NCBI GenBank assembly: GCA_963772365.1
Contig: CAVYXA010000001.1
Location: forward strand, 448,001 to 512,000
Length of the DNA: 64,000 nucleotides
Reading direction: 5' to 3'
DNA from: an uncultured Verrucomicrobiae bacterium
GTDB lineage: Bacteria; Verrucomicrobiota; Verrucomicrobiia; Chthoniobacterales; UBA10450
The stretch's first letter is position 1; the number at the start of each line of letters is the position of its first letter. The notes beneath the pieces were generated by a model. The model made no database searches. It worked only from the letters and a program-made list of their open reading frames with translations, and was not told the origin of the DNA. A program made the position numbers and the translations under genes. Below, one piece after another: positions 48,876-55,474 of this stretch.

Positions 48876-49622
48876 ATGTTAAAGCTGAAAAAACTCCGGC
48901 TTGATCAGTTGCTGGTGACCAAAGGCCTCTTTCCCAGCCGGGAAAAAGCCCAGCGCGCTGTCATGGCCGGGGAAATCAAGATCGGAACGCAGGTCGCGGC
49001 CAAGCCATCCCAGCTTGTCCAACCGGATGTGGAGATCAGCGTGAAATCGCCGGAAAAATTTGTCGGTCGCGGCGGCCTGAAATTGGAAGGGGCGCTCAAT
49101 GATTTCAAGATCGACGTCGAGAACAAGATCGCCCTCGACATCGGCGCTTCGACAGGCGGATTCACCGATTGTCTGCTCCAGAGGGGCGCGGCCAGGGTTT
49201 ACGCCGTCGATGTTGGCCACGGTCAATTGGATTGGAAAATTCGGAACGATCCGCTTGTGATCGTGCTGGAAAAGCTGAATGGGCGGTTTCTGTCCCGTGA
49301 GCAGATTCCTGAGTCTGTCGATCTTTGCGTGATCGATGTCTCATTTATCTCGCTGACTTTGATCTTGCCCAATGCCTTTGAGTTGCTAACTGCAAATGGC
49401 GTGATCCTGGCTTTGATCAAGCCACAGTTCGAGCTCCAGGCGGCCGATGTCGGAAGCGGGGGAATCGTTCGTAAACCGGAGTTGCATCGAAAGGCACAAG
49501 ACAAGATCGTTCAGTTCGTGACTCAGCTCGGCCATAGCGTTTCCGAAATTGTTCCTTCCAGCATCACTGGCGCCGACGGCAATCAGGAATTTTTTGCATG
49601 CATACGAAAACGATCGGCCTGA
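48876..49622 (+). CDS. tlyA: TlyA family rRNA methyltransferase
   Basis: S4 'RLDQLLV', 'RGGLKL', 'LDIGASTGGFTD', 'DVSFISL', 'LIKPQFE'. Confidence 0.93.
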   Translation: MLKLKKLRLDQLLVTKGLFPSREKAQRAVMAGEIKIGTQVAAKPSQLVQPDVEISVKSPEKFVGRGGLKLEGALNDFKIDVENKIALDIGASTGGFTDCLLQRGAARVYAVDVGHGQLDWKIRNDPLVIVLEKLNGRFLSREQIPESVDLCVIDVSFISLTLILPNAFELLTANGVILALIKPQFELQAADVGSGGIVRKPELHRKAQDKIVQFVTQLGHSVSEIVPSSITGADGNQEFFACIRKRSA

Positions 49623-50464
49623 TTGCGCATACCGGAAAACCCGGCGTGGCCGATCTGGTCAACGCCGTGGCGGACGAGTTTCGCCGGTATTCGATGTCGA
49701 TCCTGCTGGAAAAGGAAACGGCCGCGATTGCCGGGAAAAAATCAGACAGCACCATAGCGCAGCTTGGCGCCGCCACGGATCTCTTAGTGGTCGTCGGCGG
49801 AGACGGGACCATCCTGCGCGTGGTTGGACAACTGGGTGAGGCGATCAAGCCGGTCTTCGGGATCAATGTGGGATCGCTCGGCTTTTTGACCTGCGCAAAT
49901 TCCAGCGCTTATCGCGAAGCGGTCGAATGCATCGCGAAAGACCGCATCAACTTCAGTCAAAGGACGCTGTTGGAAGCACGGGTCACGTTAGGCGAAAAAC
50001 GCACCGGGAAAATGATCGCCCTCAACGACGCAGTCCTGAGCCGGGGCGAGCTTTCCCGGTTGGTCTTATTGCAAGCACGAGTGAACGGCGAAGTGCTCAC
50101 GGAATTTAATGCCGATGGATTAGTCGTGGCCACGCCGACCGGGTCGACCGCCTATTCGCTCTCGGCGGGCGGGCCGATTCTCGACCCGGAATCGGGCGTC
50201 CTCGTGATTACCCCGATTTGTCCGCACGTCCTGACCAATCGGTCCATCATTGTGGCCTCAACCTCGGTCATCGAAATTGAAGCGAGCGATCCTGAGTATC
50301 CGGTCTTTCTCACGCTCGACGGCCGGCCACCAATTCACATCGAGCGAGGATCTACAATCACCATCCGCAAAGCGAAAAAGACTCTGCCTTTGGCCGCGTT
50401 GCCCGATGTCTCATTCTTCAGCGTGGTGCGACAAAAGCTGAAATGGAGCGGCAGCAACGTCTAA
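49598..50464 (+). CDS. nadK: NAD kinase
   Basis: 'VGGDGTIL', 'GINVGSLGFL', 'DGLVVATPTGSTAYSLSAGGP'. Confidence 0.95.
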   Translation: MHTKTIGLIAHTGKPGVADLVNAVADEFRRYSMSILLEKETAAIAGKKSDSTIAQLGAATDLLVVVGGDGTILRVVGQLGEAIKPVFGINVGSLGFLTCANSSAYREAVECIAKDRINFSQRTLLEARVTLGEKRTGKMIALNDAVLSRGELSRLVLLQARVNGEVLTEFNADGLVVATPTGSTAYSLSAGGPILDPESGVLVITPICPHVLTNRSIIVASTSVIEIEASDPEYPVFLTLDGRPPIHIERGSTITIRKAKKTLPLAALPDVSFFSVVRQKLKWSGSNV

Positions 50465-50480
50465 GAGCCATCTCGTAAAT

Positions 50481-50508
50481 GGTAGGGACGGATCGCCGAG
50501 CCGTCCGC
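50481..50508 (+). repeat. GTAG-type REP-like palindrome between convergent genes
   Basis: GGTAGGGACGGATCGCCGAGCCGTCCGC; a related copy follows metG near 17391-17416. Confidence 0.55.
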
Positions 50509-50550
50509 AACGCGCGCCCCACCACAACACGGCGCCCGACCATTCGCAGT

Positions 50551-51210
50551 CTAGATTCGTTCGATTGTTGCCAGCCAGCCCGGTGCACCGTGGTCGTGGA
50601 ATCTCGTCTCAATCCGCTCCGGTTCGATTGTGACGATATTCCAGCCGGTGCTGGGGTTGAACGCAGATCTCAGGTCTCTCTGACTGATCGGGTGCGGGCC
50701 AATATCGACACCTTCGTCACTGAAGCACAGCACGTACAGAGTCCCACCGTGTTTGGTCACCGATGCCAGACTCGCCGCGTATCGGGGTTGCTCGTCGTTG
50801 TCGAAAGTGTGGAATAGTCCGCAGTCCATCACAGTTTCGAACTTGCGCCCCAACCGATCGAGTTGGAGCGCGTCAGCTAAGGCGAATTCAACGTCGATCT
50901 TACGGTCGTCGGCTTTCTGTCGCGCGATCGCCAGTGCCGTTTCAGCTACATCAACACCGACAACGGCGAGTCCGAGCCAAGCGACCTGAAGAGCGTTCTC
51001 GCCGGTCCCGCATCCCGCATCGAGCACCGCTCCGGCAAATCCGCCTTTGGATGCCAGGCGCACGAGTGCTGGCTGCGGCCGGCCAATATCCCAGGGCGCA
51101 GGCCCATCGTGATACGACGCATCCCAGGGCAATCCTGATTGCCGTTCGTGGCTGGTTGGCCGCCGACCACCAAACGGATCGCCACCGAAGGTTCGTGGTT
51201 GCTCCGACAA
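50551..51210 (-). CDS. Class I SAM-dependent methyltransferase
   Basis: 'PWDIGRPQP', 'VLDAGCGTGEN', 'DCGLFH'. Confidence 0.88.
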   Translation of the reverse strand: MSEQPRTFGGDPFGGRRPTSHERQSGLPWDASYHDGPAPWDIGRPQPALVRLASKGGFAGAVLDAGCGTGENALQVAWLGLAVVGVDVAETALAIARQKADDRKIDVEFALADALQLDRLGRKFETVMDCGLFHTFDNDEQPRYAASLASVTKHGGTLYVLCFSDEGVDIGPHPISQRDLRSAFNPSTGWNIVTIEPERIETRFHDHGAPGWLATIERI

Positions 51211-51333
51211 TTTCTTCCTCCAGCGGATTTTGCCAGGTGATCGTGGCAGGTCAATTCGCCAGCTCGCCGCCGTAGTCCTCCGATGGCGACGAAGGCGAAT
51301 CCGTGGTTCTCAGATTGCCGAAGGATCCACTTG

Positions 51334-51960
51334 TCAGGCCAACTGGCGAGAGCGGAAACGAGTTACACCGAACAAAGCGACCAAGCCTACGAACAGTAAT
51401 CCAAAAGTTGAACCCGAGTCGGGCACTATACGGACGGTGAAGTTCTGGTTTACTCCAGTTCCCCAGGTCCACTCATAGATGCCAGGCGTTAAGCCGAGGC
51501 TGGCGAAACTCGCGCTGTCGTAGGTCGCGGTGTCCGACAGGGGGGAACCGGATACATAGCCTAGTGGCACAAACAGCAAATGACCGAGGCCGAAGATTCC
51601 GACTAGATCCCCGCTGCCACTATCGGCCAAGGTGCCAAAGCCGCTTCCAAAACTTGTCGGACCACTGATACCACCGCCGCCATACGGCTGGACAGGGTTA
51701 GACCCAGTTGGGCCAGTAAAGATGTATGCACCGAATGGGACCACTTGAGATGTCCCTGTTGTTGGGAAAAGAGTATCGAGGCCAGTTAAATCGATAGGTC
51801 CGCTTCCGGTGGCGACAACGTCGGGACCGACTTGCCGGAACGTTACGATGTAACCGGCTTGAGCGGATGGAGCGGAGGAAACGATTGCGAACGCCAGAGC
51901 AGCTAGCGTGGGTTGAAAGAATTTGCGGAAGAAGCTAGCTGTTTTCAGAGGATTTAGCAC
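51334..51960 (-). CDS. VPDSG-CTERM (PEP-CTERM-like) exosortase-sorted surface protein
   Basis: Signal ending 'AQA'; C-terminal 'VPDSGSTFGLLFVGLVALFGVTRFR'. Confidence 0.88.
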   Translation of the reverse strand: MLNPLKTASFFRKFFQPTLAALAFAIVSSAPSAQAGYIVTFRQVGPDVVATGSGPIDLTGLDTLFPTTGTSQVVPFGAYIFTGPTGSNPVQPYGGGGISGPTSFGSGFGTLADSGSGDLVGIFGLGHLLFVPLGYVSGSPLSDTATYDSASFASLGLTPGIYEWTWGTGVNQNFTVRIVPDSGSTFGLLFVGLVALFGVTRFRSRQLA

Positions 51961-52157
51961 GGGCGTGAGAATGAGAAAAAACGAGCGCAAAGTCAAGCTT
52001 AATTCGTTAACTGCGTAGGAAAATTGCTGCCAGTGCCTACTAAATCCGCTGCCGATTTAGCGACATTTGGCAATCGGCAAAGTGCTCACACCGATTCCTG
52101 CGGCGAAAAGAGGGCGCGGAGTTTGAGAAAGCTTTCGCCGCAATTTGAATACTGTCG

Positions 52158-52583
52158 TCAGTTTTGCCTAAGAAACTTAATCAATTCGTTAAGCGTAGTG
52201 TTCAATTGTGCCTTACCTTTGTCACTCATGTGCCCTGGGGCCATATTGATTATCTTAGTGACCAAAGCTTTGTATTGTTCTTGCCTAGATCGAGGGTAGT
52301 CCAATTCGACAACGGTCGCCTTTGCAATCAGTTCAATCCTGAAATCATCAAAAAGTTCAAACACGTTGCGAGACAAGTTGGCTTCAGGGACGTATTTCGG
52401 GCGATTAGCTTCGAAGTCAGATTTCCAAGCATTTAGAAAGGCGAGCAACTCAACTTTGCGTCGACGTTGATCACGACGACTAGCAAAATAGTTGGCGACA
52501 AAAGCGCCCGAAATTGCTCCACCAATGCTCCCAAAAGCGATAATAACAAACACTTCCTCAATTGTGTCCCAGTTCATCGACAT
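52158..52583 (-). CDS. Hypothetical single-TM protein, AT-richer than flanks (possible cargo of an older element)
   Basis: ATG with AGGAGG RBS upstream; one N-terminal TM helix. Confidence 0.6.
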   Translation of the reverse strand: MSMNWDTIEEVFVIIAFGSIGGAISGAFVANYFASRRDQRRRKVELLAFLNAWKSDFEANRPKYVPEANLSRNVFELFDDFRIELIAKATVVELDYPRSRQEQYKALVTKIINMAPGHMSDKGKAQLNTTLNELIKFLRQN

Positions 52584-52798
52584 TTACCTCCTGCTCGCGG
52601 TGTTGGGTTTTATTGGAGGACTCATCGGCGGGCCTTTGCGGGTCGTAGTCTATGTCGGAACGCAATCAGCGGTCGACTTCCTAAAAGCGACGATGGAAAA
52701 GGCTCAACTCCGAATTAGGAGCAGACTAGAAAAACCATACCCAACCAACCCCAACGCCTAGCGATTGGTGCTGGTAGGGTTTGATTATGGAAATTCTA

Positions 52799-53371
52799 TT
52801 ATTCCGATCTAGCTCGATGAAGCCAGCGCGCGGTTCCGTCAGCTTGGTAAGCCAAGGTGAATCGAAAACCTTGCATCTTTTTCGTCCTGATGAATGTCGA
52901 ATAGTAGACGTTTACATTAATATCTCCCAGTCTGTACTGCATCTCGTTTCGGTAAAAAGGCATCCGGACTGTCACTGTGGCTGTTTCCTTTGCGTCCAAA
53001 TTCGGTATTTCCGGTGCCGAATCGTCAAACTGCATTCCCTCGATTCTGCCGCCGTAAATATTTTCAACTTTGCTGACACCGACCATTCGACGTACGTGAT
53101 AAATTGGCAGCCACCCTTCGTTTGTAATCTTGAAGATCGCGGGGAACGGATGTTGAGGATCGAGCGGCCTCTCGATCTCTACGGAAACACTTGATTGAAA
53201 TGAAAAGTAGGTCGTCGCGATTGTCATCAAAGCCAATAGCCAAAAGATTGGGCCGACAGGAGAAAATATCAGACCAAATAATCTTCTTACTTTGTTCCTT
53301 CGGTTTCGCTGCCGCTGTTTTTGCCATTTCAGTCTTCGTAGGTCTCTTGCTCGCTTGCCTCTTTTAGACAT
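52799..53371 (-). CDS. Passenger: basic N-terminus, one TM helix, small beta-rich domain
   Basis: 190-aa ORF ending just inside the left TIR. Confidence 0.6.
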   Translation of the reverse strand: MSKRGKRARDLRRLKWQKQRQRNRRNKVRRLFGLIFSPVGPIFWLLALMTIATTYFSFQSSVSVEIERPLDPQHPFPAIFKITNEGWLPIYHVRRMVGVSKVENIYGGRIEGMQFDDSAPEIPNLDAKETATVTVRMPFYRNEMQYRLGDINVNVYYSTFIRTKKMQGFRFTLAYQADGTARWLHRARSE

Positions 53372-53388
53372 TGACTGTATTAAGCTTT

Positions 53389-53577
53389 GTGCCTAAACGC
53401 GACACAAGCCAAGAAGCCTTGCGGCAAGTCGAGCAGATCACCGGCAGCAAGCCGGTCCGAGGAGAAACCTTGCTCCGGTCGCGGAAGTTAAAGCAACAGC
53501 TTAGAGAAGCTAGAAAGCGCGAAAAAGACCGTCATGTAAAGGCTAGCAGGCCGCCGAAGACAAGACGCTCGGACTAA
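53389..53577 (+). CDS. Passenger: small basic protein
   Basis: GTG start, 'PKRDTSQEALRQVEQITG' followed by a Lys/Arg-rich tail. Confidence 0.5.
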   Translation: MPKRDTSQEALRQVEQITGSKPVRGETLLRSRKLKQQLREARKREKDRHVKASRPPKTRRSD

Positions 53578-53624
53578 TTCTTTGTCCTTGCATTTGTATT
53601 GCATCTGCTCCAAGGTTCCTGACT

Positions 53625-54041
53625 ATGACCGGGGATGACATTCGGAGCATCGAAGAACGCGAGGCGCTTCTTGATAAAGAAATTACTGAAAGGCAGAAGC
53701 TAAAAGACGCCTATCGCCTTGTTCGAGAGGACTTGGCGCGGAGCCACGGACAAAACGGAAGCGCCAGCCAGGATGATGCGGTTGGGCTATGGCCGGAGCT
53801 ATCTGGGCAGGGCGACAAGGAGTACGGGCGCAATACGAAGCTCGTGCGACTGGCTATCTCCAAAATGACAGACGATTACCACATTCGTGATATTTATGCG
53901 TTTCTGCGCGGTCACGGTTACCAGATCGGAATGAGCGCGATCGGAATAGTTCTCAATCGCTTGAAGAAAACCGGCGAAATCAAAGAGCGTGTGCCGGGAA
54001 GCGGGCGCAGACCGGCTTTGTACAGAAAACGAAGATTATGA
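53625..54041 (+). CDS. Passenger: coiled-coil + winged-helix DNA-binding-like protein
   Basis: 'YHIRDIYAFLRGHGYQIGMSAIGIVLNRLKKTGEIKER..GRRPALY'. Confidence 0.65.
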   Translation: MTGDDIRSIEEREALLDKEITERQKLKDAYRLVREDLARSHGQNGSASQDDAVGLWPELSGQGDKEYGRNTKLVRLAISKMTDDYHIRDIYAFLRGHGYQIGMSAIGIVLNRLKKTGEIKERVPGSGRRPALYRKRRL

Positions 54042-54160
54042 AGTTAGACCGACAGCGCAAGGCGACATCAGCCCGGTCGTAACCTAGCGCAATGATACAA
54101 AAGGCACCGGGCCGCGTGGTTGAATCCTACTAAGACTGCCACGCGGCCCGGAAGGGCAAT

Positions 54161-54230
54161 GGGGATACCGGGTAGGCGGGCACGCCCTATAAGCAACGCC
54201 CGGTGGGTTCAACTCCCACTATCTCCACCA
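54161..54230 (+). ncRNA. tRNA-like RNA (70 nt) with Ala-type acceptor stem, canonical T-arm and encoded CCA, lacking a normal anticodon arm
   Basis: GGGGATA pairs with TATCTCC (G3-U70); T-arm GTGGG-TTCAACT-CCCAC; ends ACCA. Confidence 0.6.
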
Positions 54231-54240
54231 CTTTCTTGTA

Positions 54241-54417
54241 TTACGGAATATCACGAGTTGACCGTTCTATCAAGCAATTTCTGGCCCACTCTCTAACCTT
54301 CTGGCCAGCGCGTTTGGCAGCGCGAGTCATTGCGGTGAGTTCATCCTGAGAGAAACGCAGAGAGAAAACGCTTTTCGTCTTTCGCTTTGGCAATTTAGGT
54401 CTTCCCCGTTTTGGCAT
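54241..54417 (-). CDS. Small AT-hook + ribbon-helix-helix regulator (58 aa, below the ORF-track cutoff)
   Basis: Hand translation MPKRGRPKLPKRKTKSVFSLRFSQDELTAMTRAAKRAGQKVREWARNCLIERSTRDIP*. Confidence 0.7.
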   Translation of the reverse strand: MPKRGRPKLPKRKTKSVFSLRFSQDELTAMTRAAKRAGQKVREWARNCLIERSTRDIP

Positions 54418-54423
54418 AATTAT

Positions 54424-54476
54424 TTTTCGTAATACGAAAATTAGTGTTGACGGTAGTTTAATTTTTGTATTACATT
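54424..54476 (+). promoter_or_regulatory. Transposase promoter with operator-like repeats
   Basis: TTGACG (54447-54452), 18-bp spacer, TACATT (54471-54476); palindrome TTTTCGTA-A-TACGAAAA at 54424-54440. Confidence 0.55.
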
Positions 54477-54496
54477 AAATCAAGCTAAAAATTTGT

Positions 54497-55423
54497 ATGA
54501 ATAAACGATTGAGCAAAGAACGGCAGTCTTTAGTTTTGGCGGCGCTCTGTGAAGGAGCACCAATCAACGCAGTTTGCCGGATGTTCCGCGCTGATAAAGC
54601 GGCGGTGCTGCGCATCGTTCGTGAGACCGGCGAAGCATTTATCGACTACATGGACAAAGAATTTCGCGACTTGCCGTGTGTTCGCATCGAAATGGACGAG
54701 CAATGGCAGTATGTTGGCTGTCACGCGGGCCGGATGCCAAAGCCGACGACCGTTTATGGGAAGCGCGACAATACGCGCGGCGACTTTTGGTTGTGGGCCT
54801 GCATCGACGCGGACACGAAGTTGATTTTCTCGCATCGTGTCGGCAAGCGTGATCGCTGGACAGGCCGCGAGTTTGTTGCTGATGTGCGCCAGCGCGTGAA
54901 AGGGCCGGTGCAGATCGCCACAGATAATTTCAAGCAATACCCGTGGCACATCCGCGAGGCTTTCGGTTACGAGGGTTTCAGCTACGGAATGGAAACAAAG
55001 GTATTCGGCGAGCCGGAAATGCTTGACGGCACGCTGGCGCGTCTTGGAAAGAACGAGGGCGTTCGCAAGATGATGACAGCGGAGCGGAAAGCACTAGTAG
55101 GCTCGCCGGACTTAGGCAGCCTCACCACTTCGCACATTGAGCGGGCTTTCTTGACCGTTCGCCAAGAATTGAAGCGATTCCAGCGCAAGGGGCTTGGCTA
55201 CAGCAAAACAGTCGAAATGCACAAGGCGGCGGTCGCAATGTTCCTTGGCGTTTACAATTTCGTCCGTCGTCACGAGACACTGAAAACAACGCCAGCGGTC
55301 GCAGCAGGCGTGGAATTGAAAGCGTGGCGTTTAGAAGACGTGGTTGAAATGAAAGACGCCTACGTGCGCCGGACAGAGGACGCGAAATTTGAAGCAGCAT
55401 TCGCCAAGCTTGAAAAACCATAA
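54497..55423 (+). CDS. IS1-like DDE transposase with N-terminal HTH
   Basis: 'LCEGAPINAVCR', 'IEMDEQWQYVG', 'WLWACIDADTKLI', 'QIATDN', 'TSHIER', 'YNFVRRHETL.TTPAVAAGV'. Confidence 0.9.
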   Translation: MNKRLSKERQSLVLAALCEGAPINAVCRMFRADKAAVLRIVRETGEAFIDYMDKEFRDLPCVRIEMDEQWQYVGCHAGRMPKPTTVYGKRDNTRGDFWLWACIDADTKLIFSHRVGKRDRWTGREFVADVRQRVKGPVQIATDNFKQYPWHIREAFGYEGFSYGMETKVFGEPEMLDGTLARLGKNEGVRKMMTAERKALVGSPDLGSLTTSHIERAFLTVRQELKRFQRKGLGYSKTVEMHKAAVAMFLGVYNFVRRHETLKTTPAVAAGVELKAWRLEDVVEMKDAYVRRTEDAKFEAAFAKLEKP

Positions 55424-55446
55424 CCAAAGCCTACCAACACCTAGCG

Positions 55447-55474
55447 ATTTTATATGACATATATTGTCTGATGT
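55447..55474 (-). other. dif/xrs-like XerCD site (degenerate)
   Basis: Minus strand ACATCAGACAA-TATATG-TCATATAAAAT; 11-6-11 layout, 20/28 to the B. subtilis dif recalled as ACTTCCTAGAA-TATATA-TTATGTAAACT. Confidence 0.45.

Follow-up and report, generated by a model that had tools for sequence, protein, structure and literature searches.

The DNA considered here, called the window throughout, is a stretch of 64,000 nucleotides of contig CAVYXA010000001.1, from an uncultured bacterium of the order Chthoniobacterales, phylum Verrucomicrobiota. At positions 52767-55441 it carries a transposon of 2,675 bp, bounded by 24-bp inverted repeats (21 of 24 positions) and flanked by a perfect 8-bp duplication, TAGCGATT. 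Between the ends of this element, the present element in what follows, lie several passenger genes and an uninterrupted transposase gene, whose stop codon falls within the right inverted repeat, 55418-55441. There are neighbors on both sides. To the left, across a gap of exactly 8 bp, stands the right end of an older relative; to the right, the end of the present element is 5 bp outside the XerD arm of a predicted chromosomal dif site, and the 8-bp duplication takes in the outer 3 bp of that arm, the register of the dif-proximal copy being set by the 28-bp alignment of dif. The anatomy of both elements can be read directly from the DNA, and their features are collected in Table 1; related loci, genomes and contigs are referred to by numbers beginning with L, G and C, respectively.

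Table 1. Features of the locus (positions in the window) and hybrid half-dif sites of related loci (positions in the locus named)
Feature	Position	Strand	Basis or remark
NAD kinase gene, conserved chromosomal anchor, XerD side of dif	49598-50464	+	tblastn
Methyltransferase gene	50551-51210	-	Pfam; variable NAD kinase-dif interval
VPDSG-CTERM protein gene	51334-51996	-	Pfam; variable NAD kinase-dif interval
Remnant of older transposase gene, 3' end, 17 codons and stop	52095-52148	+	blastn, tblastn
Orphan gene, 141 amino acids, N-terminal hydrophobic stretch	52158-52583	-	open reading frame
Right inverted repeat, older element	52735-52758	-	position weight matrix 27.5 bits; inner flank tttttctag, right-end type; within repeat D1
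Distal copy of 8-bp duplication TAGCGATT, spacer between old and new ends	52759-52766	.	
Left inverted repeat, present element	52767-52790	+	GGTGCTGGTAGGGTTTGATTATGG; 21/24 complementary to 55418-55441
Cargo, orphan protein, 190 amino acids	52799-53371	-	open reading frame
Small conserved partner gene, 68 amino acids, core module	53371-53577	+	tblastn matches upstream of transposase gene in 10 loci; alignment, translations
Cargo, orphan protein, 138 amino acids	53625-54041	+	open reading frame
tRNA-like piece within cargo, 70 nucleotides	54161-54230	+	7-bp acceptor stem with G3:U70, T arm, ACCA end
Small ribbon-helix-helix (NikA-like) gene, divergent from transposase gene	54241-54417	-	Pfam PF21983, 27.5 bits (cut-off 27)
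IS1-family DDE transposase gene, 308 amino acids, uninterrupted	54497-55423	+	Pfam PF03400 (DDE_Tnp_IS1)
Right inverted repeat, present element	55418-55441	-	reverse complement of GGTGTTGGTAGGCTTTGGTTATGG
Dif-proximal copy of 8-bp duplication TAGCGATT	55442-55449	.	last 3 nucleotides are the outermost 3 of the XerD arm
Predicted chromosomal dif	55447-55474	-	ACATCAGACAATATATGTCATATAAAAT on minus strand
Hybrid half-dif sites, L086	7429, 6670, 5725, 4011 (raw)		true dif at 2027
Hybrid half-dif site, L007	3953		
Hybrid half-dif site, L088	8746		
Hybrid half-dif sites, L090	5952, 4425		
Hybrid half-dif sites, L010	1690, 2718		
Hybrid half-dif sites, L014	57, 733		
Hybrid half-dif sites, L020	450, 905, 1509		

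The older element was first suspected in a preliminary description of this DNA, which reported that 52729-52766 resembles 55412-55449. A base-by-base recount confirms 30 identical positions out of 38, and a repeat search finds the same match and extends it to 41 nucleotides (52726-52766 and 55409-55449, 78% identity, family D1); the final 8 bases of both copies, TAGCGATT, are identical. The match is too good to be due to chance. Its left copy belongs to an older relative, now truncated, and comprises the right inverted repeat of that relative and the same 8 bp. This old end was scored with a position weight matrix built from related ends, for which 355,528 shuffled bases gave 3 matches of at least 11 bits. 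A 24-nucleotide pattern made from both ends of the present element matches only those two ends in the window, and nothing in 100 shuffles. The residues LEKP can be read in both copies, as had been pointed out, and are no evidence for a gene at 52492-52761, because they are part of the conserved sequence just inside the right ends; many relatives have the inner flank tttttc or tttttag there.

More of the older element survives to the left, where the absence of any transposase had been claimed. The 17-codon remnant at 52095-52145 has blastn matches in the transposase genes of L005, L008, L012 and L016, at their 3' ends. It reads FLRRKEGAEFEKAFAAI, followed by a stop codon, and tblastn aligns it to nine transposase C-termini, those of eight relatives and the window's own, with E values from 4e-4 to 0.06 in a database of 2.4 kb. 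The remnant lies about 600 bp to the left of the old right end. The 141-residue orphan between the two, which has no match in Pfam, NCBIfam or PADLOC, is read as cargo of the older element on account of this placement; in L004, L005 and L008 cargo likewise sits between the transposase gene and the right end. No left end of the older element was found, both of the candidates proposed for it scoring negative (-1.1 bits for 52599, without a matching flank, and -18.5 bits for 52058-52070), and the element is therefore truncated at its left.

Sequence comparison places the present element in the IS1 family, as a distant member. The transposase matches Pfam PF03400 with 48.2 bits (cut-off 24.1), over residues 209-254 only, and its best NCBIfam model is that of the IS1 family, NF033558, with 66.4 bits, which is below the equivalog cut-off of 100. 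Tblastn against plasmids returned 10 records, of which 6 are annotated as 'IS1 family transposase'; these share 23-36% identity with the query, the full-length ones across more than 90% of the protein. The acidic residues D67, D104, D143 and E215 are kept in all 18 sequences that were aligned. Ends of the IS1 family begin GGnnnTG, and those of the present element start GGTGCTG and GGTGTTG. Single-ORF (open reading frame) and cargo-bearing subgroups of the family exist, according to the ISfinder reviews. The present element has in common with IS1 the transposase family, terminal inverted repeats in the range of about 20-30 bp (24 bp here), and a target duplication of 8 or 9 bp; perfect 8-bp duplications are also seen in L004, L007, L008, L011, L014, L029, L032 and L131. 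For IS1 itself, PMC12428005 gives imperfect inverted repeats of about 30 bp and a duplication of typically 8 or 9 bp, and describes the E. coli element as 768 bp long, with an insA/insB frameshift, no cargo, and several copies at many sites. Unlike it, the present element has neither the -1 frameshift nor the length of about 0.77 kb, but a single ORF of 308 codons in 2.7 kb of DNA with cargo, and occupies one locus per genome, beside dif.

That the site in question is dif is an addition to the preliminary description, which had not seen it. Conservation among related loci extends over 37 bases beyond the element on its right, and no further. These bases hold the motif 55447-55474, which we identify by similarity as the putative chromosomal dif, the site at which chromosome dimers are resolved, with high, if not full, confidence. 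On the plus strand its parts are the XerD arm (55447-55457), the central region (55458-55463) and the XerC arm (55464-55474). It agrees with dif of Methylacidiphilum infernorum at 23 of 28 positions, including 6/6 in the central region and 9/11 in the XerD arm, and with those of Akkermansia muciniphila, Bacillus subtilis and E. coli at 20, 20 and 16 of 28, respectively; the first three of these reference sites are predictions of Kono et al. 2011 (PMC3025954). The core motif, TATGACATATATTGTCTGATG, has a single match in its own genome when up to 3 mismatches are allowed. It occurs exactly once in 51 of the 201 genomes of the order and twice in none, the reversed control pattern giving 0, and it is found in 18 of the 21 genomes of the family to which the window belongs.

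The place of the motif in the chromosome was compared with signs of the replication terminus. On the 1.8-Mb contig C1, the cumulative GC skew has its maximum at 517,500 and the motif is at 503,453, 14 kb away. In G141, from another genus of the family, sampled skew is +0.008 before the motif (7 of 12 samples positive) and -0.019 after it (1 of 8; Mann-Whitney p=0.007), and dnaA is 1.52 Mb from the motif on the same contig. The distance from dnaA to the motif is about half of the genome in two of the five genomes checked (G153 and G141). The host has a XerD protein (330.8 bits, cut-off 329.6) and a second Xer-like gene (275.9 bits). Segments without a recombinase gene that are bounded by hybrid half-dif sites in relatives (see below) are also counted as support for the identification. 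The motif was considered as a promoter or RNA gene as well, and this was rejected: a search of ten empty-site loci against Rfam, at E values up to 0.1, returned nothing.

Relatives hold their ends at a fixed distance from this motif. Among 31 loci selected through the transposase, 23 have the dif motif, and in 17 of these an end of at least 5 bits stands before it, at 11 nucleotides (15 loci) or 12 nucleotides (2 loci). Five more have a weaker, ..CAACACC-like end at 11 nucleotides, and in the last, L007, the end abuts a hybrid dif. The empty site, whose existence in relatives had been proposed as a check, is also seen. At 32 dif sites of other families, chosen by the motif alone, there are no ends and no transposase genes within 1.5 kb; in the window's own family, 7 of 17 motif-selected dif sites carry an end, and L101 consists of the NAD kinase gene, 52 bp, and dif. 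Both the fixed position and the empty sites are direct observations. In all 8 genomes checked, every transposase copy of at least 54% identity is within 5 kb of dif, and there is one such locus per genome. Insertion is non-random, as had been suspected, the reference point being a conserved single-copy motif. The orientation of the element next to dif is of both kinds, 15 loci against 9.

Ends that face each other keep a fixed spacing, which is likewise a direct observation. A scan of 49 sequences gave 112 ends of at least 8 bits, from which facing pairs within 40 nucleotides were taken. Facing ends are exactly 8 bp apart, and never at another spacing, in 13 of 13 independent junctions, distributed over 12 of the 49 loci, and in 3 junctions of 2 further loci, which makes 16. 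In 10 loci (the window, L004, L007, L008, L011, L014, L029, L086, L131 and L134) one and the same 8-mer is found at every junction and flank, and the 8-mers are specific to the genome, differing from one to the next. Exact 8-bp spacing and a shared 8-mer are what serial insertion into one regenerated target predicts. Tandem ends that share one target duplication had been anticipated among homologs by the preliminary description, and its central proposal, that repeated site-specific insertion by a DDE enzyme builds an array of cargo genes, is supported by the junctions, the shared 8-mers, the empty sites and the fixed distance to dif.

The account that we consider probable, with good confidence, is that an IS1-family transposon with passengers has inserted with its right end 5 bp outside the XerD arm of the predicted dif, and that the older, truncated relative was likely pushed away from dif by this insertion into the same 8-bp target. 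The flank of dif is likely to be targeted again and again by elements of this IS1-type group, with cargo genes piling up as a result. In mechanistic terms, the transposase, acting alone or with two small conserved partners (the 68-residue protein and the ribbon-helix-helix protein), would cut with an 8-bp stagger at a set distance from dif, placing one cut 5 bp beyond the XerD arm and the second 3 bp into it. Repair would duplicate the 8 bp and keep the 28-bp dif intact, and the dif-side copy would therefore stay a competent target. The next arrival would insert between the resident element and dif, so that the newest is expected beside dif, and older elements would decay to cargo and a solo end. 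Dif might be read by direct recognition of DNA, or through dif that is bound and bent by XerD. The occurrence of the element in both orientations makes us slightly favor a cue that is protein-bound or structural. A predicted complex of host XerD with the transposase scored 0.16 against a mark of 0.32, in a run made without controls, and weighs on neither side.

Several observations weigh against this account. What we infer of the older element's history comes from its solo right end, one orphan gene and a remnant of 17 codons, and the present element is single-copy in its genome, with nothing showing movement. The dif call depends on similarity to sites that are themselves computational predictions; dnaA is at 12-27% of the genome from the motif in G034, G130 and G006 (12% in G034, a single contig), and the skew of G034, in 20 samples of 20 kb, has no clear switch. 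The spacing to dif is 12 nucleotides in L010 and L020, and the best register of the end in L094 and L095 is 13 nucleotides, not 11. L032 (48% identity) has a perfect 8-bp duplication and no dif nearby. The 8-mers are unequal in L005 (6/8), L015 (5/8), L022 (5/8), L010 (3/8) and L100, and in L003 and L027 they are reverse complements, so that later rearrangement must be invoked for these loci. Finally, the dif-proximal copy of L005 is frameshifted and its distal copy is intact, which counters a simple rule that the newest element stands next to dif.

A different arrangement at the same place is formed by hybrid half-dif sites, in which the XerD arm and central region continue into a foreign arm, drawn from a small recurring set (TAGCAATC.., TATCAATC.., TAGTTTTT..). 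Such sites follow one another in tandem at intervals of 0.7-3 kb, to the XerD side of dif, and in L007 and L086 they are located between the array of IS1-type elements and the working dif. The 5.4-kb stretch of such sites in L086 has no recombinase gene by Pfam. Segments of this kind are read as probable Xer-dependent cassettes stacked at dif. A broader proposal can be made from this: that the dif flank of Chthoniobacterales is a gene-capture pad with two unrelated routes of entry, one being IS1-family DDE transposons 5 bp outside the XerD arm and the other hybrid-dif cassettes without a recombinase, and that what guides the transposase is not the DNA sequence by itself but a protein or structural cue, dif with XerD bound to it. 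We regard this as speculative and rather doubtful in its entirety; if true, it would tie transposition to the machinery of chromosome-dimer resolution.

Other explanations of the junction in the window fare less well than repeated targeting of dif. The new element could have homed to the end of its resident relative, in the way that certain insertion sequences are drawn to inverted repeats of their own kind, with the nearness of dif being incidental or of importance for the first insertion only. This would suit the frequency of facing ends 8 bp apart, and the junctions of L003, L012/L021 and L134, which have no dif in the DNA examined. The same fixed distance from dif is, however, kept where there is no second end, for example in L009, L014, L017, L020, L023 and L029, and targeting of dif alone predicts the junctions anyway, since the resident end borders the dif-side copy of the 8-mer. 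Of the 9 such loci that have a dif or hybrid dif in view, 8 show one 8-mer both at the junction and at the dif flank, and copies of high identity are found at only one locus per genome. Homing to ends is therefore judged unlikely.

Less likely again is a single ancient array, inherited vertically without repeated targeting, of which the ends would be relics. Its syntenic place beside NAD kinase in several genomes and its presence in one copy per genome would be explained in this way. Against it, identities of the transposase and of NAD kinase are uncorrelated (Spearman -0.15, 15 pairs from 6 genomes), and the L004 and L005 transposases are 85% identical when their NAD kinases are only 66% identical. 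The 15 versus 9 split of orientations between genomes, the differing cargo, and the genome-specific 8-mers point the same way, as do the empty or nearly empty sites within the same family (52 bp in L101, 0.9 kb in L092) and the fact that elements lie beside dif also where NAD kinase is on its other side, as in L008.

Entry by XerC/XerD recombination at dif, with the inverted repeats being irrelevant, has the attraction that recombinase-less segments with hybrid half-dif sites occupy the same place in L007, L086, L088, L090, L010, L014 and L020, but it is very improbable for the window, in which a single dif-like site is found with up to 2 mismatches to the XerD arm and central region, and where the element encodes a DDE transposase and has inverted repeats and an exact 8-bp duplication at its borders, not dif halves. 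As for the notion that the 38-nucleotide match is left over from a local tandem duplication or a dimer of one element, it can be practically dismissed: junctions of IS (insertion sequence) dimers and circles do resemble the layout of right end, short spacer and left end, but the old and new right ends disagree at 8 of 30 positions next to an identical 8-mer, the orphan gene and remnant to the left are not a copy of the present element, and the C-terminus of the remnant (..FAAI) is not that of the new transposase (..FAKLEKP).

Targeting of dif by DDE elements has one known precedent in print, the IS1202 family with its ISAjo2/ISAba71 group, called 'dif site hunters' by Harmer, Pong and Hall (2023, PMC10132070; a related preprint on the IS1202 group is that of Siguier et al., bioRxiv 10.1101/2022.12.17.520857). 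As described in PMC10132070, these are insertion sequences found at a constant 5 bp from an arm that binds Xer, in dif or in sites like it; they leave dif intact, do without accessory machinery of the Tn7 type, and may, in the view of those authors, interact with the bound Xer protein. In all these respects the present elements are alike, apart from the identity of the arm, which is that of XerC in the IS1202 group and of XerD here. The two groups differ in transposase (TnsB-like, of 441-457 amino acids, versus the unrelated IS1-type enzyme of 308), in ends (5'-TGT..ACA-3' versus GGTG..CACC), in duplication (5 bp versus 8 bp, reaching 3 bp into the arm), in orientation (fixed versus both, 15:9), in size (1.5 kb without cargo versus 2.7 kb with passengers, stacked in arrays of decayed copies), and in hosts (plasmids and chromosomes of Acinetobacter versus chromosomes of soil Verrucomicrobiota). 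The present elements thus behave like the IS1202/ISAjo2 group but fail every feature that defines that family, and are not members of it.

In the literature that we searched, there was no report of IS1-family elements at dif, and IS1202/ISAjo2 was the only IS family described there as a dif hunter. The present group would be a second, unrelated transposase family to have converged on dif, at its other side, with a different geometry of cutting, and with cargo. Site-specific DDE transposition is rare and of practical value, as in Tn7 and its relatives, and dif is near-universal, single-copy and essential; the two groups offer a natural comparison for how a simple, one-protein transposase reads a Xer site. 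Repeated insertion would also explain why, throughout an order of soil bacteria that are abundant, dif is accompanied by a hypervariable island rich in orphan genes; a simple rule by which such islands could grow is that the target is regenerated each time.

Integrons are arrays of diverse, mostly orphan genes that grow at one fixed site, and the likeness of the locus to them, drawn in the preliminary description, is a fair analogy as far as outcome goes: the array is at one site and the newest member is expected next to it. The likeness does not extend to parts. Each unit here brings its own transposase and IS inverted repeats; Pfam finds no IntI-type integrase or other tyrosine recombinase among the 10 ORFs of 50.5-56.6 kb, there is no second dif-like cassette site in the window, and no attI or attC was seen, a dedicated attC search not having been part of the analysis. 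Integrative mobile elements exploiting Xer (IMEX), such as the CTX and TLC phages, integrate at dif by means of host XerCD and are flanked by dif or hybrid dif. They share with the present group dif as a landing site and tandem arrays of successive arrivals beside it, and differ from the element of the window, which has its own DDE enzyme, inverted repeats and 8-bp duplication; IMEX-like segments and the present transposon group coexist in related loci. Tn7 requires TnsA, TnsB, TnsC and the target selector TnsD, and its target immunity prevents stacking, whereas here there is one transposase with two small proteins, and stacking is the rule. What is common to Tn7 at attTn7, in the account of PMC10132070, and the present elements is a DDE transposon at a set distance from a conserved, essential chromosomal feature that is left undestroyed.

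Some junctions of relatives have structures of their own. The 8-mers that flank one element are AATCGTAG and CTACGATT in L003 (2013-2022 and 3116-3125) and AGTAGAGG and CCTCTACT in L027 (2223 and 4478), reverse complements in each case; inversion of the 8-bp spacer between two facing inverted repeats is a possible cause. At 3304-3340 of L010 there is a 37-bp unit in which a left-type end is followed directly by a terminus (..CAACACC), 8 bp before the next element, and which may be a fully collapsed element. L012 (35-90) and L021 (2251-2306) are two contigs of one assembly. Each has its own transposase-bearing element next to an older end that, together with its 8-mer, is common to the two, and at this end both contigs stop; members of the sampled population may differ in what occupies the site, or a repeat may be involved.

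On the side of NAD kinase, the array has a conserved chromosomal neighbor. By tblastn, this gene adjoins the array in L003, L004, L005, L008, L009, L011 and L023. In L101, which is from the window's own family, its stop codon is the boundary of the 52 bp that separate it from dif, and because of this the DNA that separates NAD kinase from dif in the window, roughly 5 kb, is added material. The methyltransferase and VPDSG-CTERM genes within it (50551-51996) are without homologues in the 31 related loci, a search for IS ends there was negative, and the interval is absent from L101; these genes may be older cargo. The interval (50465-52094 in the window, 1805-3689 in L004, 4436-11828 in L088) is hypervariable, from 52 bp in L101 and 0.9 kb in L092 to 4-8 kb elsewhere. 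Genes that recur in it without recognisable IS ends are a sulfotransferase next to NAD kinase (L004, L088) and the VPDSG-CTERM gene (window, L088). NAD kinase is on the XerD side of dif in the window, L004, L005, L011, L023 and L101, and on the XerC side, convergent and 0.05-1 kb away, in L008, L041, L060, L096 and L097; dif appears to be inverted relative to its neighbors between lineages.

Three genes of the present element recur in relatives as a core module, namely a gene for a small acidic/basic protein (68 residues here), the divergent ribbon-helix-helix gene and the transposase gene. The ribbon-helix-helix protein is a predicted regulator, judged by its domain, and at least 10 relatives have, in this place and on this strand, a gene for a small basic protein. 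A 123-residue ORF upstream of the transposase gene in L004 and L008 was rejected as a wrong-frame reading across the partner and ribbon-helix-helix genes. A TTGTATTAC-type motif is present in 3 copies, two direct and one inverted (54233-54253, 54422-54440 and 54462-54482; repeats D12 and I15), which flank the ribbon-helix-helix gene and the promoter region of the transposase and are candidate operator sites.

The rest of the present element is cargo. Neither orphan protein has a match in Pfam, NCBIfam or PADLOC, and the one of 190 residues has no homologue in the 31 related loci. The tRNA-like piece scores 29.6 bits with the Rfam tmRNA model, below the gathering score of 47 and similar to what the genome's tRNAs score, and its folding z-score is -1.47; it is not called by ARAGORN, not found in 200 relatives, and not a copy of the host tmRNA. 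As the insertion target it was rejected for being sub-threshold, not conserved and no copy of host tmRNA, and so was a tRNA or tmRNA gene in general, for ARAGORN finds none in 48-60 kb and Rfam none at the gathering score in 45-64 kb. In other loci the cargo differs from place to place and is mostly without a known family, those recognised being P63C, DUF3800, PIN, SNase and Schlafen-type ATPases. A reading of the cargo as a defence island was not supported by PADLOC, which gave partial matches only among 15 cargo proteins, for the Schlafen-type ATPase of L100 and, weakly, for L028.

The genome of the window has a second IS1-family transposase gene (L002, G000:C1:1019863-1020678), which is 35% identical to the first and is located away from dif; the lineage represented by this gene is away from dif in other genomes of the family, too.

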